Source: Armatimonadota bacterium
GTDB lineage: Bacteria > Armatimonadota > UBA10988
Length of the DNA: 64,000 nucleotides
Assembly: GCA_016235455.1 (NCBI GenBank)
Contig: JACRKZ010000069.1
Span: forward strand, 27,913-91,912
Direction of reading: 5' to 3'
In this document: in pieces, positions 10,870 to 28,645 of the stretch
Layout: every line of letters starts with the position of its first letter
How positions within the stretch are numbered: position 1 is the stretch's first letter
The notes under the pieces: generated by a model
What the model was told of the DNA's origin: nothing
Databases searched by the model: none
What the model saw: the letters and a program-made list of their open reading frames with translations, nothing else
Made by a program: the position numbers and the translations under genes

Positions 10870-11553
10870 CTAGAACTTCACCCCAGGATTGGTGAAGCGC
10901 AAGCCAGCGCCGTCGTGATAGGTGGCGTACTCGGTGACGATCGCGCCATCGGTGCCGCCCATCATGAAGTGCTTCTGGCCGACAGCGGCCAGGCGCTGCG
11001 CGCCGCCGACGTCGAGTCGGCTGACCTTGCGGGCCGTGGTGAACTTCTGCTGGCTCTCGGGGATGAGCTTGGCCGCTTCGGGCGACTCGGGGCCCTCGGC
11101 GAACAGGTAGACCCAACCGTAACGAGCCTGCCAGGACTCCATCTTCGGCGCCATGTCGGTCTTGACGTGCGCGTGCTCGACGATCATCTGGCCGGGCAGC
11201 AGGTAGATCTCATGGCCGAAGTACGAGAAGTCCTTCTCGTTGACCCAGAAGATGCCGCCCATGCCGGCGTGAACGAAGTCGCCCAGGCCGAAGTCGGTGG
11301 CCCAGATGTTGGCCTTGAGGTAGTCGCTGCTGGGCACATGGTACTTGGCCATCAGCTCGAGGTACGCGGCTTTGCCCTTCTCGGCGTCGAACTTGCCGTC
11401 GGCGCCGTAGAACATCTCGTTCTTATACGGGGACATCGGGATCTCCTGAGCCGGCGCCACGCCTGTGCGGCTGGCGCCACCAGCCATCGCCACGCCGGTC
11501 ACGCCCAGGGCCGCCATCGCGGCCAGGACCTGTCGGCGATTGAGGTCTTCCAT
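10870..11553 (-). CDS. D-lyxose/D-mannose isomerase family cupin with Tat-like leader
   Basis: TDFGLGDF..G....WVN, LLPGQMIVEHAH, KMESW and AIVTEYAT motifs. N-terminal NRRQVLAAMAALG. Confidence 0.75.
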   Translation of the reverse strand: MEDLNRRQVLAAMAALGVTGVAMAGGASRTGVAPAQEIPMSPYKNEMFYGADGKFDAEKGKAAYLELMAKYHVPSSDYLKANIWATDFGLGDFVHAGMGGIFWVNEKDFSYFGHEIYLLPGQMIVEHAHVKTDMAPKMESWQARYGWVYLFAEGPESPEAAKLIPESQQKFTTARKVSRLDVGGAQRLAAVGQKHFMMGGTDGAIVTEYATYHDGAGLRFTNPGVKF

Positions 11554-11580
11554 GGATCGCTCCTCACGCCAGGCGCCCGA

Positions 11581-12468
11581 TCAGGCGTCCTGGTACATCT
11601 GATAGGCATCCGCCGGCGGCATCAGTTGATGCACCACCGCCGAGACGGCCTTGGCCATGGCCACCGGCTTGTCGGCCTGGAAGATGTTGCGGCCCATGTC
11701 GACGCCCGCGGCGCCCTGCTGGACGGCGTTGTAGCACATCTTCAGCGTGTCGAGCTCGGGCAGCTTCTTGCCGCCGGCGATGACGATAGGCACGGGGCAG
11801 GCTGCGGTGACCTGCTCGAAGTCGGACTCACAGTAGTACGTCTTGACATAGTGAGCGCCGAGTTCGGCGATGATGCGGCAGGCCAGGCCCAGGTAGCGCG
11901 CGTCACGTACCATCTCGCGTCCGACGGCGGTCACGCCGAGGGTCGGGATGCCGTAGCGGTTGCCCGCATCGATGGTCTTGGTCAGGTTCTCCAGCGTGTC
12001 GTGCTCATGCTCGCCGCCGACATAGACCTGCACCGCCATGGCCGCGGCGTCGAGGCGCACGGCGTCCTCGATGTCCACGCCGACATGCTCGTAGCTCAGA
12101 TCCTTGAGGATCGTCGCGCCGGCCGAGCAGCGCAGGGCGATCGGCTTGGTGACGGTGGGCGGAATGCAGCTGCGCAGCACGCCGCGCGTGCACATGAGCA
12201 CGTCGACATGCTCGCACAGGGGCACGATGTTCAGGTCGATGCGCTCGAGACCGGTGGTCGGTCCCATGATGTAGCCATGGTCGAAGGCCAACATCACAGT
12301 GCGCCCGCTCTTGGGGTTGAAGATGCGCGACAGGCGGTTCTTCATGCCCCAGTCGAGGTTGCCCGAGCCGCGCAGGAAGAAGCCTGGGGTCTCGAACGGG
12401 ATATGGGGGCTGAACGCCTTGCTCTCGCCCGTGTCACCACCCGGGGTGGTCGTTTGTTCGTCTGGCAT
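11581..12468 (-). CDS. lsrF: LsrF-type class I aldolase/thiolase
   Basis: [40 protein letters not shown] (Schiff-base Lys), PIVIAGGKK and [10 protein letters not shown] closely match LsrF. Confidence 0.88.
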
Positions 12469-12533
12469 ATGTCTCTCCATAGGGTGTGGGGGCGACCCGG
12501 GTGGGCCGCCCCTGGCACGTCGTGCAGACCGGC

Positions 12534-13169
12534 TCAGGCCGCGGCTTCCGCGAAGGCGCGGAAGAGCAGGCTCATCGACGTGGCGCCGGCATCGGGCGAG
12601 CCCTTGCTGCGCTCGCCCAGATTGCGGGCCCGGCCGAACTTGGCCTGCATGTCGGTGGTGGCCACGGCGCCGGCCTCGGCGGCCGCGGCCGCGTTGTCCA
12701 ACGCCTCGGCCACGCCCAGACCGCCGTCCGCGGCGCTGCGCAGCGCCTGCACCGCGGGGACCAGCGCGTCCATCATGGTCTTGTCGCCGGGCTGGGCCTT
12801 GGTCTGGCGCTGCACGGCGGCCAGACCAGCCTCGAACGCCGCGGCGAAGGCAGCGGCATCCAGGGCGCTCTGACCGGCCGCGGATTCGGCCAGGCCGTTG
12901 AACAGCGTGCCCAGCAGCGGCCCGGTGGACCCGCCGTCGACGCCCAGCAGCGCCCAGCCGACATCGGTCAGCAGGGCCGGCAGGTCGCCTTCGGCTGAGG
13001 CGCCGATGGCCGTCTCGATGCAGCCCATGGCGCGCTTCATGGTCGTGCCATGATCGCCGTCACCGGCATAGGCATCGAGCTGGCCGAGCCACTCGTGCTT
13101 GTCGATCACCTTGGTCTCGGCGGCGCGCAGCAGCGCCACCATGGCCGCGTAGTCAATGCTCTGGATCAT
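12534..13169 (-). CDS. dhaL: Dihydroxyacetone kinase ADP-binding subunit (DAK2)
   Basis: [33 protein letters not shown]...GERSKG.PDAGA. Confidence 0.9.
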
Positions 13170-13179
13170 CGAGCCTGCC

Positions 13180-14181
13180 TCACTTGCCGCTCACGGTCAG
13201 GTACGGCGTGTCGGCGGGGGCGTCCCACAGCGCGATCAGTTCGTCGTCCATCTTGGCGGCGAACATCTGGAAGCCGGCCATCTCCTGCACCGTGAGGTAC
13301 TCGTCGCAGCCGCCGCGCACCACTTCGATGCCCTTCTCGGCGCACACCTGAGCCACCTTGCGGAAGACGATGAACATCTCCATGAGCGTGGTGGCGCCGG
13401 TGCCGTTGAGCAGAACCAGCAACTTGTCCCCGGCCTTGGCCTCGATGTCGGCCAGCAGCATGTTGATCATGATCTCCGCGGTCTCGTCCGCGCTCTTGAG
13501 CTTCATGCGGCCCGTGCCGGCCTCGCCGTGCTGGCCCATGCCGATTTCCATCTCGTCTTCGGGCAGTTCGAAGATGAACTCACCGGTCGAGGGATGGCTG
13601 GCGGGCGTCAAGGCCACGGCCAGCGTGGCCATGTTGTCGTTGAACTTCTCGGCCACGGCCAGCACTTCATCCAGCGAACGGCCCTCTTCGGCGGCCGCGC
13701 CGGCGATCTTGTACAGCGGCACGCAGCCGACCAGGCCGCGCCGGTTCTCGGGCTCGGACTTGGGGCCGCCGGCCACGTCTTCGTGGGTCAGGATCTGCTT
13801 GACGTTCAGGCCCTGCTTGGCGGCCATCTCCATGACGATGTTGGCGGTCATGACGTCGCCCGAGTGGTTGAGCACCACAAAGAGCACGCCCGCGCCGAGG
13901 TCGGCCCGCTTGATGGCGTCGAGCACGCGGGGCGGACCAGGCGCCGCGAAGATCTCGCCGGGCACGCTGATGTCGATCATGCCTTCGCCCACGAAGCCCG
14001 ACAGCGCCGGCTCATGCCCGCTGCCGCCGTGGGTGACGATGGCCACTTTGCCCGCCGCCTTGGGCGTCGCGCGCACGACCAGATTGTTGCCTTCCAGCTT
14101 GATCTTCTTGGCGTACGCCGCGGCATAGCCCTCCAGAAGCTCGCTGACGAGATTGTCCGGATCGTTGATGAACTTCTTCAT
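13180..14181 (-). CDS. dhaK: Dihydroxyacetone kinase substrate-binding subunit (DAK1)
   Basis: True start MKKFINDP at 14181. GGSGHEP, GEIFAAP, LNHSGD, RRGLVG and EIGMGQHGEAG motifs. Confidence 0.9.
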   Translation of the reverse strand: MKKFINDPDNLVSELLEGYAAAYAKKIKLEGNNLVVRATPKAAGKVAIVTHGGSGHEPALSGFVGEGMIDISVPGEIFAAPGPPRVLDAIKRADLGAGVLFVVLNHSGDVMTANIVMEMAAKQGLNVKQILTHEDVAGGPKSEPENRRGLVGCVPLYKIAGAAAEEGRSLDEVLAVAEKFNDNMATLAVALTPASHPSTGEFIFELPEDEMEIGMGQHGEAGTGRMKLKSADETAEIMINMLLADIEAKAGDKLLVLLNGTGATTLMEMFIVFRKVAQVCAEKGIEVVRGGCDEYLTVQEMAGFQMFAAKMDDELIALWDAPADTPYLTVSGK

Positions 14182-14261
14182 GCCACTCTCACTCCCATCG
14201 CCTCGGTCCCACGCTCGGCGGTGGCCCCCAGGGCCAACGGTCCGCGTCGCGTGCCCTTGGC

Positions 14262-14576
14262 TCAGCCCAGTTGGATGTACTCGAGGTTGACGCCGTCCTT
14301 GACCAGGAACGCGACGGTCACGCCGGGCATGACCTCCATCGGCGCGTTGAGGATCTTCTCCTCGCCGGCCAGGGCCGCCTGGATGTCCTCGACCTGATAG
14401 GCCACGTGCGGCCCACGCCGCAGCGACTCGTGGAGGACACTGTCGTGCTCGAAACGAACGTACTCGAAGCACAGCGGATGCGCCGAGGGGTCGGTCACGT
14501 GGACACCGGCGGCTTCGATGTACGTGGTTTCCGGCAGGCGCTCTTGGGTCGGCACGCCGACGTGAAGGAACTGCAT
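14262..14576 (-). CDS. Small VOC/glyoxalase-like protein
   Basis: FLHVGVPT, PHVAYQVEDI and VAFLVKDGVNLEYIQ metal-ligand pattern. AGGAG RBS before ATG 14576. First gene of the dhaK operon. Confidence 0.75.
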   Translation of the reverse strand: MQFLHVGVPTQERLPETTYIEAAGVHVTDPSAHPLCFEYVRFEHDSVLHESLRRGPHVAYQVEDIQAALAGEEKILNAPMEVMPGVTVAFLVKDGVNLEYIQLG

Positions 14577-14645
14577 CGTGAACACTCCTGACCAGGTGAT
14601 TGCCCATCGTGCGCGAGAGGGCGGACACGGGCCATTCACCGCGCG

Positions 14646-14674
14646 AGTCTGCCCGATCAATATCCCTGCGTCAA
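14646..14674 (-). promoter_or_regulatory. Putative sigma70 promoter of the VOC-dhaKL-lsrF operon
   Basis: Minus strand TTGACG-17 nt-CAGACT about 70 nt upstream of ATG 14576. Confidence 0.5.
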
Positions 14675-14796
14675 GGGCTTCCACCGCTGATCGCGCTATG
14701 CTACCATACTCTCGGCGCGGGGATGTGGTATCGATATCGGGAACCTCGCCCCGAGATGGTTCGTCCCCAAGCACGTTTCGCAGGAATCAAGAAACC

Positions 14797-16659
14797 ATGC
14801 GCAAGTCTATCTCCATGATGCTCGTCGGCGCGCTTGCGGGCGCTGTCGTTCTCTGGTCCGGTGGTCGGGTGGAGGCCCAGCAGGGCAACGCTCACGCGCC
14901 GGTCGCCATCGCCGCCGACACCGCGGGCACCCGGCTCTGGGTGGCGGAATCGGATGGGCGGCGCCTGGTGGCGCTCGACGCCGGGGGCAAGCAGTTGGCC
15001 CAGGTCGCGTTGCCGGGACCGGCGACGGGTCTGGCCCTCAACCGCGATGCCTCGACGGCCTTTGTGACCATGGGCGACAGCTCGGTGGCGGCGTTCGATG
15101 CCGCGACGCTCAAGGCGCGCGGCACCTGGCAGTCCGGCTACGGCGTGTCCGGCCCGGTGGTCAGCCCCGACGGCGCCACGGTCTATGTGTGCCTGCGCTG
15201 GACCGCCGAAGTGGCGGCCATCGACGCCAAGACCGGCAAGGAGCGCGCGCGCATCAAGGTGCTGCGCCAGCCGACCGTCGCGGCCATCACGCCCGACGGC
15301 GCCAAGCTCTACGTGGCCAACCTGCTGTCGGTCGACCCGTCGACCGCGCCGACCGTGGCCGCCGAAGTGAGCATCGTCGACACCAAGACCAACAAGGTCA
15401 GCGGCCAGGTGCGGCTGCCTGACGGCAGCCACTCGCTGCGCGGCATCGCGCTGGCGCCCGATGGCAAGACGGTCTATGTGGCGCACCTGCTGTCGCGCTA
15501 CCACCTGCCCACCACGCAGCTCGAGCGCGGCTGGATGAACACCAACGCGCTGTCGCTCATCGACACTGCCACGGACAAGCGCATCAACACCGTGCTGCTC
15601 GACGAAGTGGACCGCGGCTCCGCCAACCCGTGGGCCGTGGGTGTCTCCGCCGACGGCGCGACGCTGTGCGTCACCTCGGCCGGGACCCACGAGGTCAGCC
15701 TGATCGACACCGCCGCGCTGCGCAAGAAGCTGGACGAGGCCGCCAAGGCCTTCGCCGCCAAGACGCAGACCACCGCGGTCGCCGTTGACGGCTACACCGA
15801 GACCGACGGCGTGTCCGAGGACCTGACCTTCCTGCTGGGCATGCGCCGGCGGGTGGCTCTGCCCATCAACGGCCCGCGCAGCATCGCCGTGGCCGGTGGC
15901 AAGGCTTTCTCGGCGGGCTTCTACAGTGACAACATCGCCATGGTCGACCTGGCCAGCAGCAAGGTCGAGTCGGCCAAGCTGTTGCCCGAAGTGCCCATGA
16001 GCGAAGTGCGCCGCGGTGACATGTTCTTCGCCGACGCCTCGCTCTGCTTCCAGAACTGGCAGAGCTGCTCCAGCTGCCATCCCGACACGCGCGCGGACGG
16101 CCTCAACTGGGACCTGCTGAACGATGGCATCGGCAACCCCAAGAACACCAAGAGCATGCTCTACACGTTCAAGACGCCGCCGGCCATGAGCCTGGGCGTG
16201 CGCGAATCGGTCGAGGCGGCGGTGCGCGCCGGTATCCGCGTCATCCAGTTCGCCGTGCGGCCCGAAGAGGACGCCAAGGCCATCGACGAGTACCTCAAGT
16301 CGTTCAAGCCGCAGGCCAGCCCCAAGCTGGTCAACGGTAAGCTGAGCGCCTCGGCGCAGCGCGGCAAGGCGCTGTTCGACAACAAGGACGTCGGCTGCTC
16401 GAGCTGCCACGAGGGCCCGCTGTTCACTTCGCTCAAGCACTACGACGTGGGCCTGGGCATCGGCAGCGAGGCCGGCAAGCCGTTCGACACGCCGACTCTC
16501 ATTGAGGCCTGGCGCACCGGTCCCTACCTGCATGATGGTCGCGCGGCCACGCTGCTCGACGTGATCACCAAGTGCAATCCCAACGACAAGCACGGCAAGA
16601 CGTCGCAACTGAACAAGCAGCAGTTGGCGGACCTGGCCGAGTACGTCGGTTCGCTCTGA
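14797..16659 (+). CDS. Exported YVTN/YncE beta-propeller fused to di-heme cytochrome c (bCcP/MauG superfamily)
   Basis: Sec signal MRKSISMMLVG..VEA. Repeats SPDGATVYV, TPDGAKLYVAN and APDGKTVYVA. Two CSSCH heme motifs (about 16066 and 16396) and FDTPTL...TGPYLHDG. Confidence 0.85.
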   Translation: MRKSISMMLVGALAGAVVLWSGGRVEAQQGNAHAPVAIAADTAGTRLWVAESDGRRLVALDAGGKQLAQVALPGPATGLALNRDASTAFVTMGDSSVAAFDAATLKARGTWQSGYGVSGPVVSPDGATVYVCLRWTAEVAAIDAKTGKERARIKVLRQPTVAAITPDGAKLYVANLLSVDPSTAPTVAAEVSIVDTKTNKVSGQVRLPDGSHSLRGIALAPDGKTVYVAHLLSRYHLPTTQLERGWMNTNALSLIDTATDKRINTVLLDEVDRGSANPWAVGVSADGATLCVTSAGTHEVSLIDTAALRKKLDEAAKAFAAKTQTTAVAVDGYTETDGVSEDLTFLLGMRRRVALPINGPRSIAVAGGKAFSAGFYSDNIAMVDLASSKVESAKLLPEVPMSEVRRGDMFFADASLCFQNWQSCSSCHPDTRADGLNWDLLNDGIGNPKNTKSMLYTFKTPPAMSLGVRESVEAAVRAGIRVIQFAVRPEEDAKAIDEYLKSFKPQASPKLVNGKLSASAQRGKALFDNKDVGCSSCHEGPLFTSLKHYDVGLGIGSEAGKPFDTPTLIEAWRTGPYLHDGRAATLLDVITKCNPNDKHGKTSQLNKQQLADLAEYVGSL

Positions 16660-16738
16660 ATCTCGACGGGAACCACCCGATAGATGTATTGGGCGAGTAG
16701 CCCACGCGAGCACGGCGGCGGACCGCCGGGAGTGGACC

Positions 16739-17809
16739 ATGCGTTGTGTCGGTGAGTTGACCGAATACGATATCACCCTGGCTGCGCAGCCAGGGGAGAC
16801 CCTGGAGCAGATGGTTGGCCGGCTGGCCGAGCAGCTGCACTCGGCCGATGCCGAGATGCTGCGGCTCGTGGCGCTGGCGCCGGTCGGTATGAAGGACCGG
16901 CTCGACGGTGCGTTGGCCGATGCCTTCGGCGAGGTGGACTGGCCGGTGACGCAGCTCTGCGGCGTGGGCACCGTGCCCGAGGGTCAGGTGCTGGGCCTGC
17001 AGGCCCATGCGCTGGCCGGCGCCGTCATCGACCGAGTCGAGTACGAAGGTCGCCCGATCGGCAGCATGTACAGCGATGGCTACGCGCAGTACGTGCTGTT
17101 GGGCAACCTGTTCGATCCCGACCTGAGCAAGAGCCGCTACGACCAGTGCCGGGGCACCTTCGAGTTCATGGAGCAGGTGCTCGACCCGCTGGGCATGGAC
17201 TTCCACAACATCGTGCGCACCTGGCTCTTCGCCGATCGCATCCTGGAGTGGTATGGCGACCTGAACAAGGCCCGCAGCAGCTTCTTCACCGACCGTGGCG
17301 TGTTTGGCCGGCGCGTGCCGGCCAGCACCGGTGTCGGTATCGGCAACCCGTTTGGCGCCGCCATGGTGACCGACGTGTTGGCCATGCTGCCGGCCGAGAC
17401 CGACGGCTGCGTCGCCGAGCCGACTCCGTCGCCGCTGCAGTGCGCGGCGCTCGACTACGGCAGTGCCTTCAGCCGCGCCATGGAGCTGCGCGTGCCCGGC
17501 AGTCGCCGACTGCTCATCAGCGGCACCGCCAGCATCGAGCCAGGCGGCGCCACGGTGCATGACACCATCGACGAGCAGATCGACTGGACCATGCAGGTGG
17601 TCGAGGCCCTGCTGCGCTCGCGCGGCATGGACCACGGCGACGTCTGTCGAGCCATCGTTTACTACGCCAACCCCGACTGGTTCGGCAAGTTGGAGGAGTG
17701 GCAGACGGCGCACGACGTCGACCTGTACCCGGCGACCAACGCCCAGGCCGATATCTGCCGCGACGACCTGCTGTTCGAGATCGAACTCGACGCCGAAATC
17801 GCCGAGTAG
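16739..17809 (+). CDS. Tandem Rid-fold protein, FkbO/Hyg5 chorismatase-like
   Basis: IVRTWLF, ARSSFF, PASTGVG, SPLQCAALDYGSAFSRA, LLISGTASI and ADICRDDLLFEIE parallel the FkbO/Hyg5/XanB2 motifs. Confidence 0.75.
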   Translation: MRCVGELTEYDITLAAQPGETLEQMVGRLAEQLHSADAEMLRLVALAPVGMKDRLDGALADAFGEVDWPVTQLCGVGTVPEGQVLGLQAHALAGAVIDRVEYEGRPIGSMYSDGYAQYVLLGNLFDPDLSKSRYDQCRGTFEFMEQVLDPLGMDFHNIVRTWLFADRILEWYGDLNKARSSFFTDRGVFGRRVPASTGVGIGNPFGAAMVTDVLAMLPAETDGCVAEPTPSPLQCAALDYGSAFSRAMELRVPGSRRLLISGTASIEPGGATVHDTIDEQIDWTMQVVEALLRSRGMDHGDVCRAIVYYANPDWFGKLEEWQTAHDVDLYPATNAQADICRDDLLFEIELDAEIAE

Positions 17810-17840
17810 GGGCCGCCGCCCGGATCCCCATGGAGCACAG

Positions 17841-17889
17841 CCGCCCTCGGCGGTGCGTTGGTCGAGAGGCCGCGCACAGCCGAGGGCGG
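17841..17889. repeat. REP-like inverted pair between convergent genes
   Basis: CCGCCCTCGGCGGTGCG (17841-17857) pairs with CGCACAGCCGAGGGCGG (17873-17889), 16/17. Confidence 0.55.
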
Positions 17890-17937
17890 TTCTGTCTTCA
17901 GGTGGCAAGGTGCCGGGTCTGATCCGCTCACCGGCCA

Positions 17938-18912: not shown

Positions 18913-18935
18913 ACGTCTCTCCCAGCACGCACACC

Positions 18936-18977
18936 AAGCCTGCGGGGACGCGCCACGATGGCCGTCCCCGCGGGCTT
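18936..18977 (-). terminator. GC-rich hairpin just after the GH106 stop codon
   Basis: AAGCCTGCGGGGACG pairs with CGTCCCCGCGGGCTT (14/15). Only a short U tract follows. Confidence 0.45.
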
Positions 18978-18985
18978 CGCCGTAC

Positions 18986-21900: not shown

Positions 21901-22945
21901 TCATCTGCGCGCGGTCGAGGCGCGCGTCGGCGTCGACTTCGGGACCGGCGGCGGGCGGCTGGTTGTCGGCGCGGTCGAAGCCGGCCTTGCGCGGCCAGTC
22001 GTCGATGCGCGCGGCGCCGCTCAGGTCGACCTCGGCCAGCGCCACGGCGCGCGCGCGGCTGTCGAAGCCGGTGAAGCGCACGCGCCAGACCTTGGCGCGG
22101 GCGGCGGCGAAGGTGGTCGAGGCGCGACCACCCTCGGCCGAGATGGCGAACACGTCGACCCGGCGGAAGTTCGTGCCGTCGTCCGACGCCTCCAGCACGC
22201 CGCGGTGCGCCTGGCGACCGGGTCCGCCCTGAATGGTCAGCGAGCGCGCCGCGAACGGCGCGGCGAAGGCGAAGGTGAGGGCCAGCTCAGTGCCTGCCGC
22301 GGGCTTGGCCAGCGTCACCGCGGTGCCGTTGTTGCCGTCTGTCAGCCGCGCGAAGTCGACGGCCGTCGCGGGCGCGGGCGTGACCGTCACGGTCGGCTTG
22401 GCCTCGGCCAGAGAGTGCTGCTCGGCGCGCGGCGTGGGGAAGGCCAGCACGGCGATGGGCACGTAATGGTTCTGCACCTTCTGCGGCTGGGCCAGCGGCG
22501 CCTTGGGCCGACCGGGCCCGACCAGATGCGCCTCGGTCCACACCAGCTTCTGCATACCCTCGGCCGGGGTGACCCACGGTCCGCCCGACGACGACCAGCC
22601 GGCGCAGTTGTGGAAGCACATCTCCAGCCCGTTGCGGTCGGCCTCGGAGATGGCGTGGCGGAACAGCTTGATCCACTCGGGGCTCAGGTAGTTGACCCGG
22701 CCCGCGGGGATGCCGTCGTCGACGTTGAAGATCTGCGCGCCGCCCAGACCGACCTTGCGCATCTCCTCGATGTCCTTGGTCAGGCCGGCGGCGGTGATGT
22801 TGCCGTTCATCCAGTGCCACCAGGTCTGCGGCTTGGCGGCCCGCGGCGGGTCGGCGAACCCGGCGGTCAGGTCCTGCGCGGCCAGCGGCGCCAGGGCCAG
22901 CAGCAGGGCGGCGGTCAGTAGTCGGAGCAGTCGGCACGTGCGCAT
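18986..22945 (-). CDS. Secreted alpha-L-rhamnosidase, glycoside hydrolase family 106
   Basis: KPQTWWHWMNGNIT, NCAGWSSSGGPW, GLEVDKL, IDSYE, PMTEFW, GAESFT, FHRYAHQPW and VTNLWPNRLIGD. F5/8-like insert. Signal peptide. Confidence 0.9.
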   Translation of the reverse strand: MRTCRLLRLLTAALLLALAPLAAQDLTAGFADPPRAAKPQTWWHWMNGNITAAGLTKDIEEMRKVGLGGAQIFNVDDGIPAGRVNYLSPEWIKLFRHAISEADRNGLEMCFHNCAGWSSSGGPWVTPAEGMQKLVWTEAHLVGPGRPKAPLAQPQKVQNHYVPIAVLAFPTPRAEQHSLAEAKPTVTVTPAPATAVDFARLTDGNNGTAVTLAKPAAGTELALTFAFAAPFAARSLTIQGGPGRQAHRGVLEASDDGTNFRRVDVFAISAEGGRASTTFAAARAKVWRVRFTGFDSRARAVALAEVDLSGAARIDDWPRKAGFDRADNQPPAAGPEVDADARLDRAQMIDLSDKCAADGTLDWDAPTGDWTILRLGHTCTGKDNHPSPEPGRGLEVDKLSYEAVTSFWDKGVKPILDACEPFVGKSLTQTLIDSYEVGFQTWTPKFAAEFTKRRGYDPKLYLPAMTGRVVDSLAVSERFLWDVRRTLGELFDENYYGRFAELAAQRGMSLAAEPYGNGNFDGLTAGGYATLPMTEFWSGSGGDEFGGKLAGSIAHTYGRSVVGAESFTASPENGAWRNDPWSIKALGDRMWCAGVSRFIFHRYAHQPWTDLKPGMTMSRWGMHFEWPITWWEQAPAWTKYLARGQFLLQSGVYAADALVFVGDNSPNNAVGRGTLPAGYDYDCADPTILGRLKVADGQLTLPHGSRYRVLVLPESDTMLPESLAKVQALLEAGATVVGPKPSRSPSLKPGSDAEVQKLASAVWGDLDGKTKTQRAVGRGTLVWGKPLAAVLTDMKLSPDLEFAGPEAGSMRWLHRRAGNQEIYFLASWSDRSHELSATFRVGNLLPELFHADTGVIEPAPLWQRVDGRTRVTLPFEGRGSVFVVFRKPLGGAVGVASVARTGEAMTAPGVEAAKPDELIIDSARYGVFPEAGDRVDVTEKVRAMVAAGQRAIPATNAMAGSDPANQVVKSLKVVYTLNGQQKTVVVEENSNLEVPAGATVEKAVYGLVEGEEPQAQFVDVTKILNDAVKNGRLQLQCGNDLAGDPANMTVKETRVEYRLNGVRRSARVAENAVLTLPASSGGATLLPEPYDLAIGANGRPRLTAWAPGAFEFGLSGGKTAKLDIATGPRQAAVPGPWKLSFPPNWGAPASVTLDKLISWTEHTEAGVRYFSGTAEYQRNLDVPADWVGANRRLVLDLGRVVNFAELFVNGKSQGVLWKPPFRYDLTGVAKAGSNDIRVRVTNLWPNRLIGDEQIDDGRQWGGDGRLLAWPQWILDGKPKPNDGRYTWTTWRHYTKDSELLPSGMLGPVVLRSGVVAEVK

Positions 22946-23115
22946 TGGTCGGTCCCCGTGTGGTCTTGGGGCAGGGTTCCGCGGCGAACGGCTGAGTCCT
23001 TCCAGTCTCCTCGATGCCCGAGCGGATCCCTACCGGTACTTGGCGCGAGATGTTACTTGCTGTGAAGGGAAGGCCGCCCGGGTGGCGAAGCGGGTGCGGC
23101 ACAAGGCGGGAACCC

Positions 23116-26100
23116 ATGGCTGTAGCGTGGCTGGCCGAGACCACGGCGGCGGACGCTGTCGTGAACCTGGCGTGCGACTTCGGCTACGCCACCGCGCGCG
23201 ACGGCGAGGTGGCAGAGCGCGTGCGCGTGATGTTGCGGCTGGCTGAACAGGGCGCCGAAGCCAACCACGATCTGCTTCGTGCGCTACGCATCGCCGAGGC
23301 CGAGGCGCTGGCGGGCCTCTGTGACCGCTGGTTGCACTGGTCTGGTGCGGCGCCCGCGCTCAACCGCACGCCCACGGCACCGACGGCCCATGGCGCGGCC
23401 AACGACGCCGTGCGCTGGGTGCTCCGTCTGACCGAGGCCGCACAGGCCCGTGCGCAGAGCCTGAGGACGGCGAGCTCCGAGTCGATCGGGCGATGCGGAG
23501 TCGCGCCGCTGAGCGCCGTCGATCGCGTGCTGGCCGCCGCGCTCGCGGCGCAGGTCCGACCCGCCGCCGGTGGCGAGTTCGGCGAGTCGCTGGCAGGCTA
23601 CCTGGCGGCGGTGGCAGCGCCCCTGGGCACGCCGCCAGAGAGCTTCGGCGCGCTGTGCCAGGGCTGGTGGCTCAGCCTGCTGGCCCACCGGTTCCGGCGG
23701 GAGTTCGCACCTGATGGGCGGCCTCGGGCCTGCTATCAGTCGGACCTACTGGCCCGCATCGGCCAAGCCGAACTCGTGCCCGAACGGCTCGCTGAGCGTG
23801 ATGGCCAGATGGCGCAAGCGCTGGCGGTGCTGGCCGAATGGCGTCTCACGAGCCCAGACGTCACGGCGTCCAGGGACGACCAGGATGGGCAGGCAAGCCG
23901 CCTCACCGAGGCCTGGTCCACGCTCGATGGCTGGCTTGGCGAGCTGGTCGGCGTCTCCTGGCACGTGGGCGCCAGCCGCTGGCGACGCGGCCGGCTCCAC
24001 ACCCAGTTCCACGTCGTGGCCACGAGCTCGTCGCTGCCACCGGTCTACGCCGCTGTGCCCGTGCCGGCGCCACCCAACGCGGACCACTTCGCCGAGCGCG
24101 AGGCCGATGTCGAGGCCATCGTCGCGGCGTTGGCGGCGCGATGCCCGGTGGCCCTGCTCGGTCCGGCCGGCATCGGCTTGACCAGCCTGGCGGCCGCAGC
24201 CCTGGCTGATCCGCGCGTGGCTGGACCGGGCGCCGACCGGCGGTACTACGCCGACCTGAGGCGCGCGGCCGCCGCTGATACCATCGTGTCCACAGTGGTC
24301 GCGGCGTGCGGCGTGAAGCCGAGCGGCGCCGACACGAGCAGACTCGTCGCGCATCTGGCCCAGTCGCCGGCGGCCTTGGTGCTCGACCACGCCGACGCCG
24401 CGCTGCGGCTCGGTGCCAAGGTGGTCGATGACCTGCTGCGGGCCCTGACGGGCACGCCTGGCCTGGGCCTGATCGTCGCCCTGCGCGGCGAACCGCGAAC
24501 GCCTGACGAGACGCTGTCGGGCTTCAGGCAGGTCAGACCGAGGCTGCTGAGTCCTGACGCCGCCCTGGGGCTGTTTCGCCGACTGACTGACCGGCCGAGC
24601 GGCGACAACGCCGTCCTGCGCGGCCTGTTGGCCAAGGTCGACGGCCTGCCGCTGGCGGTAACGCTGCTGGCGGCAGCGGCCCGGCTCGAGCCCGACCTGG
24701 CCGCGCTGGCGAGCCGCTGGGACAGCGAGCGCGCCCGCCTGACGCGCTCCGGCGCGGGCGGCATCGTCACTGGTCTGGACATCGCGGTCGCCGTGGCCCT
24801 GGCCAGCGAACAGCTCACCGACCAGGCCAAGCGCCTGTTGCGTGCGCTGGCTGAGCTGCCCGACGGTCTGGGCGATGACGACCTGGCGGAGCTCTACCCC
24901 CATGATGGGCGGCGATGCGCGCGCTGCCTGCGTGCTCATGCGCTGCTGGACGAGACGGCCGGCCGGCTGAGGCTGCCGGGCGCGGTCGCCGAGCGGGCGC
25001 GCGCGCAGTTGCCGCCCGATGAGGTCGAGCACGACCGCGTCGCCGAGCACTTCGCGGCGCTGTCCGAGGCGGGCAAGATGATCGGCCGCGACGGCGCTGC
25101 CGAAGTGGTGGCGCGCCTGGCGGCCGAAGCGGGCAACATCGAGGCCGCGTTGCACTGGTTGGTGGACCGGCGGCCTGTCGCCGTGCTGATGACCGCCTTC
25201 GACGGCTACGCCGAACTGGTCCGCTTCACGGGCATCGGATCCGAGGCGCCACTGCGACGCGCGGCGGCCCGGGCCGAGGCCGCGGGCGACACCTATGGCG
25301 TGGCGGAGGCGTTGCTCGAGCTGGCGCTGACGGCTTCCGGGCGCGGCGACCGCCCTGCCGCCCGATCACACTACGAGCACGCGCTGCTGAACTACCAACG
25401 CATGGGCGACCTGCGGGGTCAGGCCAACTGTGTCAGGGGCCTGGGTAACATAGCGCTCGACGGCGTGGACGCCATGACGGCACGGGCACACTACGAGCAG
25501 GCGGTGCCGCTGTACCAGCAGGCGGGTGACGTTGTCGGGCAGGCGGGTTGCGAGGAGGGGCTCGGCCGCGCGGCGCTGCTTCGCTCGGACTACGCCTCGG
25601 CACGCGCTCATTTCGAGCAGGCACTGCCGTTGTATGAGCGGGCCGCGATCGCCGTGGGCCAGGCCAACTGCCTGCACAGCCTCGGCGAACTGGCGATGGA
25701 GCGCGCGGACCATGCCGAGGCCGGAGTTCGCTACGGGCAGGCGCTGCCGCTGTACCAGCAGATCGGCGATGCTCACTCGCACGCGCATTGCCTTCAGGCG
25801 CTGGGCGAGGTGGCGCTGGCCGGCTCGCGGTTCAAGACGGCCATGGCCCGCTTCGAGCAGGCCCTGGCTGCCCACGAGCAAGCTGGCTCCGTGCTGGGTC
25901 AGGCCGGCGCCGTGCGCCGCCTCGGCGACCTGGTCAAGGGCTTCTGGGACCACCCGACCGCGCGCCGACACTACCAGCAGGCGCTGGCGATGTACGAGAG
26001 TGCTGGGGCCGACCTTGGCCGGGCGTGGTGCGAGATAGCGCTGGGCGATGTGGCTCGTGACAGCGGCGACCTCGCCGGCGCGCGGCTCGGCTTTGAGCGT

Positions 26101-26352
26101 GCCGCGGAACTGGCCCTGCGCGCGGCCGCCCCGAGCGCCGCGGCCATGGCCCACCTGCGCCTGGCGGCCATCGCCGCCGACGGCGCGGAGTGTGCCCAAC
26201 AGCAAGCCATGGCGGTCGAGTTGCTGGGCGCCGACGGCCGCGATGTCCAGCCGGCGCAAGTGGCCATGCTGACCCGCCAGCACCGCCAGCGGTCGCGTGT
26301 CGCCCTGCGCCGGTGGATTGCACGCCTGTTCTGGGCCGCTTTGCGCGAGTGA
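23116..26352 (+). CDS. STAND/NB-ARC-like ATPase with C-terminal TPR array
   Basis: GPAGIGLTSLA P-loop region, ALVLDHAD, DGLPLAVTLLA (GLPLA motif), and about 7 repeats of 40 aa such as ARAHYEQAVPLYQQAGDVVGQAGC..GLG. Start uncertain (23014-23116). Confidence 0.75.
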   Translation: MAVAWLAETTAADAVVNLACDFGYATARDGEVAERVRVMLRLAEQGAEANHDLLRALRIAEAEALAGLCDRWLHWSGAAPALNRTPTAPTAHGAANDAVRWVLRLTEAAQARAQSLRTASSESIGRCGVAPLSAVDRVLAAALAAQVRPAAGGEFGESLAGYLAAVAAPLGTPPESFGALCQGWWLSLLAHRFRREFAPDGRPRACYQSDLLARIGQAELVPERLAERDGQMAQALAVLAEWRLTSPDVTASRDDQDGQASRLTEAWSTLDGWLGELVGVSWHVGASRWRRGRLHTQFHVVATSSSLPPVYAAVPVPAPPNADHFAEREADVEAIVAALAARCPVALLGPAGIGLTSLAAAALADPRVAGPGADRRYYADLRRAAAADTIVSTVVAACGVKPSGADTSRLVAHLAQSPAALVLDHADAALRLGAKVVDDLLRALTGTPGLGLIVALRGEPRTPDETLSGFRQVRPRLLSPDAALGLFRRLTDRPSGDNAVLRGLLAKVDGLPLAVTLLAAAARLEPDLAALASRWDSERARLTRSGAGGIVTGLDIAVAVALASEQLTDQAKRLLRALAELPDGLGDDDLAELYPHDGRRCARCLRAHALLDETAGRLRLPGAVAERARAQLPPDEVEHDRVAEHFAALSEAGKMIGRDGAAEVVARLAAEAGNIEAALHWLVDRRPVAVLMTAFDGYAELVRFTGIGSEAPLRRAAARAEAAGDTYGVAEALLELALTASGRGDRPAARSHYEHALLNYQRMGDLRGQANCVRGLGNIALDGVDAMTARAHYEQAVPLYQQAGDVVGQAGCEEGLGRAALLRSDYASARAHFEQALPLYERAAIAVGQANCLHSLGELAMERADHAEAGVRYGQALPLYQQIGDAHSHAHCLQALGEVALAGSRFKTAMARFEQALAAHEQAGSVLGQAGAVRRLGDLVKGFWDHPTARRHYQQALAMYESAGADLGRAWCEIALGDVARDSGDLAGARLGFERAAELALRAAAPSAAAMAHLRLAAIAADGAECAQQQAMAVELLGADGRDVQPAQVAMLTRQHRQRSRVALRRWIARLFWAALRE

Positions 26353-26362
26353 GCGCCGGGCT

Positions 26363-27718
26363 CTACGCCTTCGCCGCCAACCGCGCCTCAATGCTTTCCC
26401 GCAGCTTCGTGGCCTCGGGGATGATGCTGCTGAAGGTCACCGCGCCGTCGATGATGATGGTCGGGATGGACTTCACGCCCAGCGCCATCATGAGCGGGAT
26501 GGTGTCGTCTTCCTTGAGCTTGTGCTCCACCCAGCGCACCTGCCCGCCAAACTGCGCCTCCACGGCCCGGACCGCTTCGACCATGTACTGGCACGGCGCG
26601 CACGACAGCGAGTCGAGCGTGACCACCTCCACCAGCACCTCGCCCGGCTTAGTGTAGTCGGGCAGCTCGATGGTCACCGCGGCCGCCTCCTTCGCCGCGA
26701 TCTCGCCGGTGAAGTCGCCGTGGACCACCTCGGCCACCGCCGCCACGTTCTCGGGCTTGGTGTCATAGGGCATGTCGCAGCCGGGCGCCAGCACGTAGCC
26801 GGTGGCGCCGCCGAGTTCGATGCACTGACGCGCCGCGCGGCGGGCGTCGTCGGTGTTGCCCAGCAGCAGCACGGTGGTCAGCGGGATGTTGCCACCAAAG
26901 GCTACGCCGTGCGCGCGGGCCACCTCGCCCATGGCCACCAGGTCGATCTGCTCGTCGACGAACAGCGCGTCGGGCTTCGTGGCACACATGCCCGGCACGT
27001 TGCGCCAGGCATCGCCACACACGAACAGCGCGGTCGTGGCACCGACCGCCGCCCAACGCTGCCACAGCGGCGCGGCGACGGGAGCAATGAACTGGGCGAA
27101 GTGCGCCGGCGAGATCTGGCTGGTCATGGGGTCGACCGCCGCCACCACGTCGCAACCCGCCTCGCGGTACCACTCGCCAACGCGCCCGGCGATGTCGGCG
27201 CAGTAAGCCAGCAGCGCGTGAATGCGTTCCTCGTTGAGCACCATCTCCAGGAAGATATCCGAGCCCAGCAGGTGCAGCGCGAGGGTGAAGGGGCCGGTGA
27301 CCAGCCCGAACAGCGCCACCTCGTCACCCACCCGCGCTCTCGCGCGGCGGATGGCCTCGATCACCACCGGCAGGCGGCCTGAGTCCGGCGTGATCTCGGG
27401 CAGGTCGCTCAGATCGAGCCCGTGGGCCAGCGGATGGCTGTTGACTGCGGGCGGGTTCTCGCTCGACCAGACCAGTTCGCAGCCCAGCGCCTCGGCTTCC
27501 ACCTGCAGATCGAAGACCACGGGCAGCCCGTCGGCGCGATAGCGCTCGGCCGCGGTGGCCACGCCGGTGGCGATGTACTCGGGATCGCGCAGGTAGACAT
27601 CGGCCGGCAGGTGCAGCAGCTTGCCACCATGGCAACCCACATAAGGGACCCACGGTGTGCGCGGCGTCGGGCGGCAATGCAGGGCGTCCAGCAGCAGTTC
27701 GCGGCGGGTCTGAGCCAT
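26363..27718 (-). CDS. UroD/MtaA-family corrinoid methyltransferase fused to C-terminal thioredoxin-like domain
   Basis: PWVPYVGCHG, FDLQVEAEALGC, GPFTLA, VDPMTSQISP, GGNIP and LAPGCD motifs. C-terminal LDSLSCAPCQYM and IPTIIIDG. Confidence 0.85.
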   Translation of the reverse strand: MAQTRRELLLDALHCRPTPRTPWVPYVGCHGGKLLHLPADVYLRDPEYIATGVATAAERYRADGLPVVFDLQVEAEALGCELVWSSENPPAVNSHPLAHGLDLSDLPEITPDSGRLPVVIEAIRRARARVGDEVALFGLVTGPFTLALHLLGSDIFLEMVLNEERIHALLAYCADIAGRVGEWYREAGCDVVAAVDPMTSQISPAHFAQFIAPVAAPLWQRWAAVGATTALFVCGDAWRNVPGMCATKPDALFVDEQIDLVAMGEVARAHGVAFGGNIPLTTVLLLGNTDDARRAARQCIELGGATGYVLAPGCDMPYDTKPENVAAVAEVVHGDFTGEIAAKEAAAVTIELPDYTKPGEVLVEVVTLDSLSCAPCQYMVEAVRAVEAQFGGQVRWVEHKLKEDDTIPLMMALGVKSIPTIIIDGAVTFSSIIPEATKLRESIEARLAAKA

Positions 27719-27807
27719 CGAAGGTCTCCAGGCTGCCGAGCGCACGCGCCTAAGCTCGGGACGTGCGCCATCCTTGGCAGCCCTCAGGCTGTTTTGGTTA
27801 GGGTGAA

Positions 27808-27845
27808 AGCCCAGCGGCACGCGCCGTGGCGCGAGCCGCTGGGCT
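27808..27845 (-). terminator. Strong hairpin between corrinoid gene and methyltransferase
   Basis: AGCCCAGCGGC..CGCGCC/GGCGCG..GCCGCTGGGCT, followed by a short T run on the minus strand. Confidence 0.45.
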
Positions 27846-27873
27846 GAGCCAAGATGGCTCGGCAAAAGGAAGA

Positions 27874-28503
27874 CTAGGCGATGAGCGCCTTGAGCATATC
27901 GACGCAGCTACCGGCGTCCGGCGAGTAGCCGTCGGCACCGATCTCGTCGCAGTAGGCCTGGGTCACCGGCGCGCCGCCGATGATGACCTTGACACCGTCC
28001 TTGAGGCCGGCTTCCTTGAGCGCCTCGATGGTGCGGCCGATGTTCGGCATGGTGGTCGTCAGCAGGGCCGACAGAGCCACCACCGACGCACCGTCGGACA
28101 CGGCTTCGATGAACTTCTCGGGCGACACGTCGACGCCCAGGTCCATGACCTTGAAGCCGGCGCCCTCGAGCATCATGGCCACCAGGTTCTTGCCGATGTC
28201 GTGAAGGTCGCCCTGCACCGTACCGATGGCCACCGTGGCCAACGCGGGCATGTCGCCTTCCTTCAGGAACGGCTTGACCAGCGCCATGGCGCCCTTCATC
28301 GCGCGAGCGGCGATGAGCACCTCGGGCACGTAGAACTCGTTGTTCTTGAACTTCTCACCCACCACCAACATGCCGGGAATGAGTCCGTCGTTGACGATGG
28401 CGCTCGGCGCGGTACCCTCGTCCAACGCCTCTTGGGTCAGCCGCGTCGCTTCGGGCAGATTGCCGCCGATCACGGCCTCCTGCATGCTGTTGAAGTCTGC
28501 CAT
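27874..28503 (-). CDS. Cobalamin-binding corrinoid protein (MtaC/MtbC/MetH B12-domain type)
   Basis: FYVPEVLIAARAM cap domain, GDLHDIGKNLV (DxHxxG), LSALLTTT and IIGGAPV. Confidence 0.93.
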   Translation of the reverse strand: MADFNSMQEAVIGGNLPEATRLTQEALDEGTAPSAIVNDGLIPGMLVVGEKFKNNEFYVPEVLIAARAMKGAMALVKPFLKEGDMPALATVAIGTVQGDLHDIGKNLVAMMLEGAGFKVMDLGVDVSPEKFIEAVSDGASVVALSALLTTTMPNIGRTIEALKEAGLKDGVKVIIGGAPVTQAYCDEIGADGYSPDAGSCVDMLKALIA

Positions 28504-28561
28504 TGGTCACCTTCCTCTGACATGGACCGCGCCGCCACACGCGGCGCTTGGCCCAGCGGTC

Positions 28562-28645
28562 ATTCTAGTGGCCAGCGACCGCGCAGGGGAAGTACCTGAG
28601 GGCCCCATGAGCACGAAGTTACCAGGCAGAGCACGAAACTACCAG
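28562..28645 (-). promoter_or_regulatory. Putative activator-dependent promoter of the corrinoid operon with 17-bp direct repeats
   Basis: -10 TAGAAT (28567-28562) with a poor -35. GAGCACGAAGTTACCAG (28609-28625) and GAGCACGAAACTACCAG (28629-28645), 15/17 identical, 20-bp period. Confidence 0.6.

Follow-up and report, generated by a model that had tools for sequence, protein, structure and literature searches.

Juxtaposed, independently conserved gene units in an 18-kb Armatimonadota region, including a DhaK-DhaL-LsrF cassette and a corrinoid protein/UroD-thioredoxin pair

In the Lsr pathway of Escherichia coli and Salmonella, an isomerase (LsrG), a kinase of the FGGY type (LsrK) and a carbon-carbon cleavage by LsrF lead to dihydroxyacetone phosphate (DHAP); the primary paper on the cleavage is reportedly that of Marques et al. 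from 2014. Kinases of the DhaK type, known from the DhaKLM system of E. coli and from the ATP-dependent Dak kinases, transfer phosphate to a CH2OH group that adjoins a carbonyl, which is the end carried by the LsrF substrate. In E. coli LsrF converts phosphorylated, isomerised autoinducer 2 (AI-2) to DHAP and acetyl-CoA, according to the passages of PMC7828210 used here. Relatives of LsrF, DhaK and DhaL, together with an MtaC-type corrinoid protein beside an MtaA-like UroD enzyme, as in MtaABC of Methanosarcina and in bacterial three-component systems, lie within 18 kb (positions 10870 to 28645) of a stretch of 64,000 nucleotides from an Armatimonadota genome (GenBank assembly GCA_016235455.1, contig JACRKZ010000069.1), which is called the window at its full length. 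A preliminary description of this DNA had proposed a single system, in which O-methylated rhamnose, fucose or xylose is set free by a GH106 protein and demethylated by the corrinoid pair, and the sugar is then catabolised by DhaKL and LsrF. We consider it probable that the region is instead a juxtaposition of independently inherited units, including a conserved cassette for a small hydroxy-ketone or diketone and a separate B12 pair, and not one pathway.

Because the G+C content of the window is about 70%, genes were picked by third-position G+C, and the chosen open reading frames (ORFs) were scanned with Pfam and NCBIfam. Every gene named in the preliminary description was found at or near the place it had been given, by Pfam and NCBIfam matches, structure matches or motif reading. 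The region holds at least four independently conserved units, called A to D, which are listed here with the family or structure behind each call:

10870..11553, minus strand: Tat-exported cupin, D-lyxose/D-mannose isomerase-like, 227 amino acids; unit A gene 5 (solved structures 2y0o, 7nzo)
11581..12480, minus strand: LsrF-clade class I aldolase/thiolase, 299 amino acids; unit A gene 4 (NCBIfam PRK08227)
12534..13169, minus strand: DhaL, ADP-binding subunit of a two-part dihydroxyacetone-type kinase; unit A gene 3 (Dak2)
13180..14184, minus strand: DhaK, substrate-binding subunit; unit A gene 2 (Dak1)
14262..14576, minus strand: small VOC-fold metalloprotein, 104 amino acids; unit A gene 1 (structure model)
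14797..16659, plus strand: exported beta-propeller and di-haem protein, a fused homologue of hydrazine synthase (HZS) beta-gamma; unit B gene 1 (PDB 5c2v)
16739..17809, plus strand: protein of FkbO architecture with a C-terminal Rid/YjgF domain, 356 amino acids; unit B gene 2 (Pfam Ribonuc_L-PSP)
17938..about 18920, minus strand: Gfo/Idh/MocA oxidoreductase, downstream of GH106; unit C (Pfam GFO_IDH_MocA and C-terminal domains)
18986..22945, minus strand: secreted protein of the GH106 alpha-L-rhamnosidase family with a C-terminal jelly-roll, 1319 amino acids; unit C (PF17132)
23014..26352, plus strand: TPR protein with a degenerate STAND-type P-loop, 1112 amino acids, divergent from GH106; its membership of unit C is queried (TPR_12)
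26363..27718, minus strand: MtaA/UroD-family domain fused to a thioredoxin-fold domain (UroD-Trx), 451 amino acids; unit D (Pfam URO-D, Thioredoxin_3)
27874..28503, minus strand: MtaC/MtbC-type corrinoid protein, 209 amino acids; unit D (Pfam B12-binding, B12-binding_2)

By their ORF coordinates these genes fall into five strand blocks, and therefore into at least five transcripts. Unit A (minus strand) diverges from unit B (plus); the GH106 and Gfo genes (minus) converge on unit B and are followed by the TPR gene (plus) and by unit D (minus). Export signals were found on three proteins, of the Tat type on the cupin and of the Sec type on the GH106 and haem proteins; none is present on DhaK/DhaL, LsrF or the VOC protein, nor on the Rid-like protein, the corrinoid protein or the UroD-Trx fusion. 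A cobalamin riboswitch or other RNA element was considered and rejected, because nothing in the window scores high enough to pass the gathering threshold of any Rfam family.

Unit D is not linked to units A, B and C in other genomes. The 80 best UroD-Trx loci from other species were collected, with 1,078 kb of flanking DNA in total and at least 5 kb on both sides in 41 of them, and all 17 window proteins were searched against them. The fusion was recovered in 80/80 loci, the corrinoid protein in 25, a generic Gfo-family protein in seven and an M24 peptidase in three. DhaK, DhaL, LsrF, the cupin and the VOC protein were found at none of the 80, and the same is true of the haem protein, the FkbO/Rid-like protein, GH106 and the TPR protein, as well as of the other window proteins, namely an SprB/M64-like protein, two small unassigned ORFs and a DinB-family protein. 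De novo clustering of the 1,047 ORFs from these loci identified as the commonest neighbour a CobW/COG0523 GTPase, encoded immediately downstream of UroD-Trx in 56 of the 80 loci; after it come the corrinoid protein (23/80 by clustering), an AraC-type regulator (19/80), a small thioredoxin-fold protein (11/80), a second UroD-family protein (9/80), a MetH-activation-domain-like protein (6/80) and a RACo activase (5/80).

The same separation is seen within the phylum. Samples of 301 genomes each were taken for Armatimonadota, Planctomycetota and Verrucomicrobiota. Among the Armatimonadota the fusion occurs in 15 genomes, and none of the 14 loci examined has GH106, the TPR protein, DhaK or LsrF. 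In all three loci from the same family the corrinoid gene adjoins the fusion (70-80% identical) and CobW does not; in all ten loci from two other families the arrangement is reversed, with CobW adjoining and the corrinoid gene not. At the closest UroD-Trx locus (62% identity) the surrounding genes are those for DsbD and lipoyl synthase and other unrelated ones. Whole genomes agree with the loci: at E<=1e-20 LsrF was not found in any of five fusion-bearing genomes, and of three further ones two have only aldolases 33-34% identical and one has no match, so that LsrF-clade proteins are absent from all eight; conversely, the fusion was not found at E<=1e-40 in the six cassette-bearing Planctomycetota genomes. 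In the Armatimonadota sample, outside the genome of the window, LsrF and the fusion occur together only in G122, G140 and G149, where LsrF belongs to a different operon; in G122 the two genes are on separate contigs, and in the other two genomes, each a single contig, 0.3 and 3.4 Mb lie between them. The corrinoid pair had been expected to co-occur with the dhaKL-lsrF-VOC or haem/Rid genes, and it does so in 0/80 and 0/14 loci and in 0/8 and 0/6 genomes. With this lack of co-occurrence, which the preliminary description had itself named as decisive, the single system of release by GH106, demethylation by the corrinoid pair and catabolism by DhaKL and LsrF is refuted.

Unit A is a real operon, as had been described, and it recurs across phyla without the Lsr transporter, LsrK or LsrG. 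The DhaK-DhaL-LsrF cassette is conserved in three phyla and is unstudied as far as our literature searches reach, since nothing relevant on a DhaK-LsrF module was found in open-access papers and bioRxiv. In Planctomycetota LsrF is present at E<=1e-50 in 44 of the 301 genomes, and the order DhaK-DhaL-LsrF-cupin is found in six of the 30 best LsrF loci, which are the six best; a VOC gene lies upstream of the cassette in four of five wider loci. In one of these Planctomycetota cassettes an FG-GAP repeat gene (L180:2187-3341) lies between dhaL and lsrF. In Verrucomicrobiota LsrF is found at E<=1e-70 in 33 genomes, and DhaL, mostly with DhaK, adjoins it in 25 of 30 loci, of which only one has a cupin within the short flanks. 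Armatimonadota have LsrF at E<=1e-30 in 28 genomes; among the 15 loci fetched, cupin-LsrF-DhaL-DhaK is kept only at the locus from the same genus, and there the neighbours of the cassette, a tRNA-guanine transglycosylase and MurJ, are entirely unlike those in the window. At eight other Armatimonadota loci the partner of LsrF is a ribulose-phosphate-epimerase-like gene with an SDR; in three of these, genes for RpiR, a RuBisCO-like protein, an FGGY kinase and a TIM-barrel protein all stand opposite, and a fourth has a RuBisCO-like gene. A scan of metagenomes with the cupin returned two loci only, one of them 1.8 kb long, and from these no usable context.

The LsrF assignment passes the equivalog model PRK08227/NF006081, with 464 bits against a cut-off of 297, and the archaeal fructose-bisphosphate (FBP) aldolase model gives 115 bits. 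Residues 16-296 match the solved LsrF of E. coli (3glc) at E 1.7e-113, and the lysine of the KTYY motif aligns with chain position 207 of that structure, which is native position 203 after a four-residue tag; Lys203 is presumably the Schiff-base lysine of E. coli LsrF. DhaL matches Dak2 (PF02734, E 6.9e-48) and passes TIGR02365 with 153 bits against 138, and DhaK, whose translation starts MKKFINDP, matches Dak1 (PF02733) at E 2e-106 and gives 329.6 bits with TIGR02363, under the cut-off of 406. The cupin, whose gene starts 27 bp past the end of lsrF, matches the solved structures 2y0o (E 1.2e-15) and 7nzo (E 8.6e-15); it has no Pfam or NCBIfam match above the E 0.001 threshold, and the curated lyxose isomerase model does not match it. 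Its twin-arginine (RR) signal and the residues H114, E126, H127, H129 and H195 are invariant in six of six orthologues, and these His and Glu residues are probably metal ligands.

The VOC gene was located by reading the sequence and is the weakest item of the list, because no Pfam or NCBIfam family model matched it. What stands of the earlier call is the fold: a profile of six orthologues matches glyoxalase I (3hdp/2qh0, E 1.6e-4), and for a structure model with pLDDT 96.4 the best solved Foldseek matches are all VOC proteins (TM 0.65-0.69), the top ones being glyoxalase I, methylmalonyl-CoA epimerase and HPPD. Residues H5, E38, H57 and E99 are invariant among the orthologues. The statement that lsr transporter, LsrK and LsrG genes do not accompany the operon was confirmed for the window ORFs scanned, where Pfam gave no FGGY kinase, ABM-fold isomerase or sugar-binding protein near lsrF, thus no gene of the lsrK, lsrG or lsrB type. 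Moreover, neither the EIIA domain of DhaM (PF03610), for which control genomes gave matches, nor LuxS was found in the genome, which is 93% complete.

Unit A shares with the Lsr pathway a close LsrF and, as we read it, the logic of isomerase, kinase and cleavage to DHAP. It differs from it in that the kinase is DhaK/DhaL and not the FGGY kinase LsrK, that the candidate isomerases are the exported cupin and the VOC protein and not LsrG, that LsrACDB and LsrR are missing from the window ORFs and LuxS from the genome, and that the cassette is tied to exported haem proteins. By analogy the cassette would act as the LsrK/LsrG/LsrF pathway does, but through a kinase and an isomerase that are not orthologous to LsrK and LsrG; it is not an lsr operon. 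Dak1 and Dak2 are separate subunits here, as in DhaKLM and related kinases; in contrast with DhaKLM, there is no DhaM/EIIA-man in the genome, the kinase is always found with LsrF across the three phyla, and DhaK stays under its equivalog cut-off.

Since the LsrF substrate has the very end, a CH2OH group next to a carbonyl, that DhaK-type kinases use, the simplest scheme runs from an isomerase through DhaKL to LsrF. All its substrates and reaction steps are ones that we infer. The exported cupin would isomerise an alpha-hydroxy-carbonyl substrate in the periplasm to a form with a CO-CH2OH end, although this isomerisation to a hydroxymethyl-ketone might be the work of the cupin, of the VOC protein or of both. 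After uptake DhaK/DhaL would phosphorylate the hydroxymethyl-ketone, probably with phosphate from ATP, given that the genome search turned up no EIIA domain of the DhaM type, and LsrF would cleave the phosphorylated product to DHAP and an acyl-CoA. The VOC-fold metalloprotein may isomerise or detoxify an alpha-dicarbonyl or acyl-CoA intermediate. The haem protein and the FkbO/Rid-like protein of unit B, a pair that co-occurs with unit A, would probably act on the same substrate stream outside the cytoplasm.

The haem protein has two CxxCH motifs and a signal peptide read from the sequence, and its best solved matches are chains C and B of PDB 5c2v (HZS gamma and beta, E 1e-25 and 5e-25). It shares with HZS beta-gamma (5c2v; passages of PMC12758564) the fusion of propeller and di-haem parts. 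It differs in lying far under the NCBIfam cut-offs (135 bits with NF052342 against 1250), so that the curated HZS models are not passed, and there is no HZS-alpha-like gene in the window; on these sequence grounds we read it as an HZS beta-gamma homologue and not as a hydrazine synthase. The FkbO/Rid-like protein matches Ribonuc_L-PSP at E 4e-12; only its C-terminal Rid domain matches solved RidA, weakly (E 5e-4), and the FkbO/Hyg5 chorismatase model TIGR04444 is not passed, with 32.8 bits against 325.

The proposed linkage of these two genes to the dhaKL-lsrF operon holds for the haem protein and less strongly for the Rid-like gene. The haem protein, at 44-45% identity, lies about 4 kb from the cassette in two of the five wider Planctomycetota loci, and the FkbO/Rid-like gene is present in one of the five. 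Of the 301 Planctomycetota genomes, 14 have an orthologue of the haem protein with 44% identity or more, and all six that have the cassette are among them; the FkbO/Rid-like gene occurs in 17, and in four of them (G355, G448, G360 and G354) it is directly downstream of the haem gene, as in the window. At the two cassette loci with the haem protein, a single gene for about 1,350 amino acids fills the gap between the cupin and haem genes (L181:4929-8981 and L182:4853-8881); it encodes the HZS-alpha middle domain and a C-terminal FGE-sulfatase (formylglycine-generating-enzyme-like) domain. A 2025 paper (PMC12758564) reports, in its section on homologues, that non-anammox homologues of fused HZS beta-gamma and of HZS alpha are co-localised, often with FG-GAP proteins, and gives no function for them there; the HZS-alpha-like gene beside the haem gene at the two related loci recalls these clades, while a link with DhaKL-LsrF or FkbO/Rid does not appear in that section. 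Another contig of the genome studied here (C183) carries paralogues of the propeller part of the haem protein (34%) and of the VOC protein (36%) (L100:3633-8252 and 16518-17954), with genes nearby for an HZS-alpha-like haem protein fused to a lectin, for a sulfatase, for an Fe-alcohol dehydrogenase and for GH97.

In unit D the corrinoid protein passes both of its Pfam models (PF02310, 90.6 bits; PF02607, 77.5 bits), has DLHDIG (DxHxxG) at residue 99, and scores 187.6 bits with TIGR02370, under the cut-off of 215.3. The fusion matches URO-D at E 1.5e-56 (192 bits) and stays under the MtaA/CmuA model TIGR01463 (149 bits against 235). Compared with solved MtaA (4ay7, E 1e-26), it has FVCG for HICG, a change of His to Phe in the zinc motif, and its PGCD aligns with PGCG, so that the Cys is kept. 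Across 21 diverse sequences C234, C314 and C373-x-x-C376 do not vary, the last being the CAPC motif that begins at residue 373. The UroD-Trx family counts 5,525 proteins at E<=1e-20 among the candidates scored, with relatives in at least 586 of the species genomes scanned, among them Armatimonadota, Clostridia, Phycisphaerae, other Planctomycetota, Bacteroidales, KSB1, Kiritimatiellia and others. In KSB1, some Phycisphaerae and other lineages there is a longer form (about 540 amino acids), whose C-terminus carries a second thioredoxin-like domain without CxxC.

Set beside MtaABC, what is distinctive in this family is the CxxC thioredoxin-fold domain, the loss of the zinc-motif His and the usual CobW partner (56/80 loci); in the window the pair has neither a substrate-side methyltransferase nor an activase next to it. 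At two loci from Clostridia the fusion is accompanied by MtaB, a corrinoid protein, RACo and CobT; MtmB is near it in one further locus, and genes for B12 uptake and adenosylation in another. These contexts suggest a generic acceptor-side role. In the passages of Kountz and Balskus (PMC10418091) used here, S- and Se-methyltransferases of the superfamily keep His-Cys-Cys and O-methyltransferases lose the Cys ligands; by this rule the fusion, which keeps both Cys, looks like a thiol-type acceptor-side enzyme and not like a sugar O-demethylase. Unit D would be the acceptor-side half of a B12-dependent methyl transfer, with its substrate-specific partner encoded elsewhere. The type 1 mlp clusters of the same paper also combine, outside the methanogens, an MtaA-like UroD protein with a corrinoid protein; according to those passages they need Mlp2, Mlp3 and a Ram/RACE activase, keep His-Cys-Cys and occur in obligate anaerobes only. 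Membership of unit D in this type was rejected, since it has a single fused UroD gene, no adjacent activase and Phe-Cys-Cys; the thioredoxin fusion and CobW found in the unit D family are not mentioned in those passages. On the UroD-thioredoxin-CobW system as such, our search of open-access papers and bioRxiv found nothing relevant.

On other contigs the genome has a further two corrinoid/UroD pairs as well as one homologue each of MttB and RACo. A complete O-demethylase set, made up of substrate methyltransferase, corrinoid protein, acceptor methyltransferase and activase, is not found together: only the corrinoid protein and one UroD-family enzyme are adjacent, and the RACo homologue is on another contig. 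The only MttB-family match (C65:63347-64687) has an in-frame TAA and the only RACo match (C62:42291-43061) an in-frame TAG. On contig C74 (84-8066; L101) two tandem UroD genes, a corrinoid protein and a third UroD gene are followed by a hybrid histidine kinase with DUF1638 and PAS, possibly a self-contained, regulated methyl-transfer locus.

A link of the corrinoid pair to sugars, which had been proposed, is visible in one lineage. In Sunxiuqinia rutila and S. elliptica (L097:5331-14608 and L072) the pair belongs to an operon of overlapping or tightly spaced genes, RhaT - UroD2 - RhaM - corrinoid protein - UroD-Trx - CobW - MetH-activation-like protein, with an AraC gene opposite and sulfatases on both sides; RhaT and RhaM are a rhamnose transporter and a mutarotase, and UroD2, a divergent UroD protein, has His at the position of the second Cys of MtaA. 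Judged from its gene content, this operon is the best single hint of action on a rhamnose-like sugar. RhaT and RhaM occur in two of the 80 loci, and GH106 in none of the 94 other loci. The genome studied here has 29 UroD-family loci by tblastn (for example C105:5275-6297, C178:8245-8937, C60:10000-10590 and C65:18900-19478), mostly without a corrinoid gene nearby. Among 23 UroD-paralogue loci scanned, about half have glycoside hydrolases (GHs) or sulfatases among the nearest genes (up to two on each side, more at some): GH95, GH29, GH127 with a RhaM homologue, GH2, GH5, rhamnogalacturonase-like proteins and sulfatases, a qualitative survey with no control loci. A UroD-family gene lies within 12 kb of three of eight GH106-like loci; with 29 UroD loci in 6.5 Mb about 0.11 per locus would be expected, and the probability of at least three is about 0.05, a value that is post hoc and carries no baseline for carbohydrate-active enzyme (CAZyme) density or correction for clustering. 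In three other genomes of the same family that carry the fusion, adjacency of GH106 and UroD genes was not found.

Several of our observations weigh against reading the region as separate units. The fetched flanks reach 10 kb on each side, less than the roughly 12 kb that separate DhaK and the fusion in the window, so that the locus test alone is not strict; for this reason whole genomes were also tested, and these tests cover only eight and six genomes. A link between units D and C is favoured by the Sunxiuqinia operon, where UroD-Trx stands with RhaT and RhaM, and by two UroD-family genes of the genome itself, of which one is 2.3 kb from one GH106 paralogue and the other, with a corrinoid gene, is 10.8 kb from a second. 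As to the cassette and its tie to unit B, eight Planctomycetota genomes have the haem protein without the cassette (no LsrF at E<=1e-50), the FkbO/Rid-like gene is present in only two of the six cassette genomes, and the co-occurrence of haem protein and cassette in six of six is overstated because these genomes are related and not independent. An exported isomerase feeding a cytoplasmic kinase is unusual. Finally, Armatimonadota orthologues of LsrF that are 61-69% identical stand with other partners (epimerase-like protein, SDR, RuBisCO-like protein, FGGY kinase), which indicates that enzymes of the LsrF clade serve more than one pathway.

Of the other explanations, the single demethylation and catabolism system of the preliminary description would account for the presence of all parts within 18 kb; isomerase, kinase and aldolase follow the standard logic of catabolism, and neither RhaA nor RhaEW was found in a genome that has several GH106 genes. 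We nevertheless hold it to be very improbable, because of the locus and genome counts given above, the same-genus cassette that has none of the other window genes nearby, the five strand blocks and the exported cupin. A RhaI-type rhamnose isomerase is moreover encoded elsewhere in the genome (TIGR02635, 530 bits against a cut-off of 531), which argues against the cassette as a rhamnose route; the idea that it supplies the missing rhamnose pathway was rejected as the main explanation on account of this candidate (on contig C73), of the exported cupin and of the absence of GH106 near other cassettes. Scavenging of AI-2, that is of DPD, without the Lsr transporter seems unlikely to us, though it is less so than a single system. 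In such a pathway the cupin or VOC protein would replace LsrG, DhaKL would replace LsrK and LsrF would keep its known role. The closeness of LsrF to the E. coli enzyme and the known conversion of phospho-AI-2 to DHAP and acetyl-CoA are in its favour; by established chemistry isomerised AI-2 would offer the CO-CH2OH end used by DhaK-type kinases, and, as the genome has no LuxS, the AI-2 would be foreign. This explanation has to face the absence of LsrB, LsrACD, LsrK, LsrG and LsrR nearby, LsrF orthologues of similar identity in other sugar-phosphate operons of Armatimonadota, and a link to large exported haem proteins that has no AI-2 counterpart. Ordinary use of dihydroxyacetone (glycerone), with LsrF as a class I FBP-type aldolase and the VOC protein as a glyoxalase for methylglyoxal, fits typical DhaK and DhaL family members, the resemblance of the VOC model to glyoxalase I and the relationship of DhnA-type aldolases to LsrF. 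It leaves the conserved exported cupin, the specificity for the LsrF clade (464 against 115 bits) and the recurrent haem-protein neighbours unexplained, and we regard it as distinctly improbable.

A partial link between units C and D is a tentative idea, to which we give a low probability, short of negligible: the corrinoid protein and UroD-Trx, with one of the many UroD proteins of the genome as the substrate-side enzyme, would demethylate O-methyl deoxy-sugars released by enzymes of the GH106 type, and DhaKL-LsrF would be unrelated. It draws on the sulfatase-flanked Sunxiuqinia operon, on the His of UroD2 at the second Cys position, which fits the loss of Cys in O-methyltransferases (as given in the cited passages of PMC10418091), on the 29 UroD loci and the three GH106-like loci that have one within 12 kb, on the GH, rhamnogalacturonase and sulfatase neighbours at about half of the scanned paralogue loci, on the AraC-type regulators flanking 19 of the 80 UroD-Trx loci and on the frequency of the family in glycan-degrading lineages. 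The adjacency of RhaT and RhaM is restricted to a single genus (2/80), that of GH106 was seen in none of the 94 other loci, three same-family genomes included, and the proximity of GH106 and UroD genes has a post hoc probability of about 0.05 with no CAZyme-density baseline. Furthermore, UroD-Trx keeps both soft Cys ligands, its Clostridia contexts with CobW, MtaB or MtmB and B12 salvage have a generic acceptor-side look, and our searches of open-access papers and bioRxiv found nothing relevant on corrinoid-dependent sugar demethylation. The known answer to methyl sugars that block glycan breakdown is a cytochrome P450, which demethylates 6-O-methyl-D-galactose in marine bacteria (passages of PMC6292453); that route depends on O2 and works without corrinoid, no P450 is involved here, and a corrinoid route for sugar demethylation is hypothetical. 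If it existed, glycan degraders might use an O2-independent demethylation of methylated deoxy-sugars in which a divergent UroD protein is the sugar-side methyltransferase, the corrinoid protein the methyl carrier and the CobW-loaded fusion the acceptor-side enzyme, a proposal that is speculative and, in our estimate, rather doubtful. We keep as the preferred reading that of juxtaposed, independently inherited units.

Unit C would consist of the secreted GH106 protein and the cytoplasmic Gfo oxidoreductase, perhaps with the TPR protein as a STAND-like regulator. The GH106 protein has an N-terminal signal, matches PF17132 with 683 bits over residues 32-858 and gives 170 bits with the NCBIfam model rhamnoside_JR; orthology to BT4145 is not supported, since the score for that model is 238 bits where 1300 would be needed. 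The domain is therefore as had been described, but the accompanying 'GH2' is the jelly-roll domain of the GH106 protein itself. No signal peptide is seen on the Gfo protein, and its true start lies after the GH106 stop, because the Rossmann motif begins at ORF residue 98. The gene that had been called STAND does have a TPR arm (TPR_12), with weak NCBIfam matches to HaaT and AfsR; its P-loop is degenerate (GPAGIGLTS, with Leu for Lys, thus no GK[ST] and no Walker A GxxxxGK[ST]), and NB-ARC is not matched in Pfam. On contig C61, too, a GH106 gene, the second one, directly adjoins a gene of the BTAD/NB-ARC/TPR kind. On this contig (L098:3807-7117; L099:3796-6932) a GH106 paralogue is divided between two overlapping ORFs, which may be due to a frameshift or an assembly error, and a pyruvate-formate-lyase-like glycyl-radical enzyme and its activase, just past a corrinoid/UroD pair, hint at anaerobic metabolism.

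Outside the region, the window contains a cluster resembling type II secretion or pilus systems, at 30946-41056 (minus strand) and 4766-5920 (plus strand), with a secretin of 1136 amino acids, a PilN-like protein, GspK-, GspI- and GspG-like pseudopilins and a T2SSE ATPase. At 57899-60991 (plus strand) it encodes a hybrid histidine kinase whose N-terminus is a PocR sensory domain, with GAF and PAS domains after it.

A single pathway, if true, would have established a B12-dependent use of methylated sugars for the first time. As it stands, the DhaK-DhaL-LsrF cassette means that LsrF, a 'quorum-sensing' enzyme, has a wider catabolic life, and it points to a testable pathway of isomerase, hydroxy-ketone kinase and thiolytic cleavage. 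The tie of the cassette to HZS-like haem proteins gives a first lead to the role of that large and functionally uncharacterised family, and the UroD-thioredoxin/CobW family, with at least 586 species, forms an uncharacterised branch within corrinoid methyl transfer. Should the doubtful link to methylated deoxy-sugars prove true, the 29 UroD genes found here, of which several have GH106, GH95, GH29 or GH127 as neighbours, would be a hidden set of carbohydrate-demethylating enzymes.

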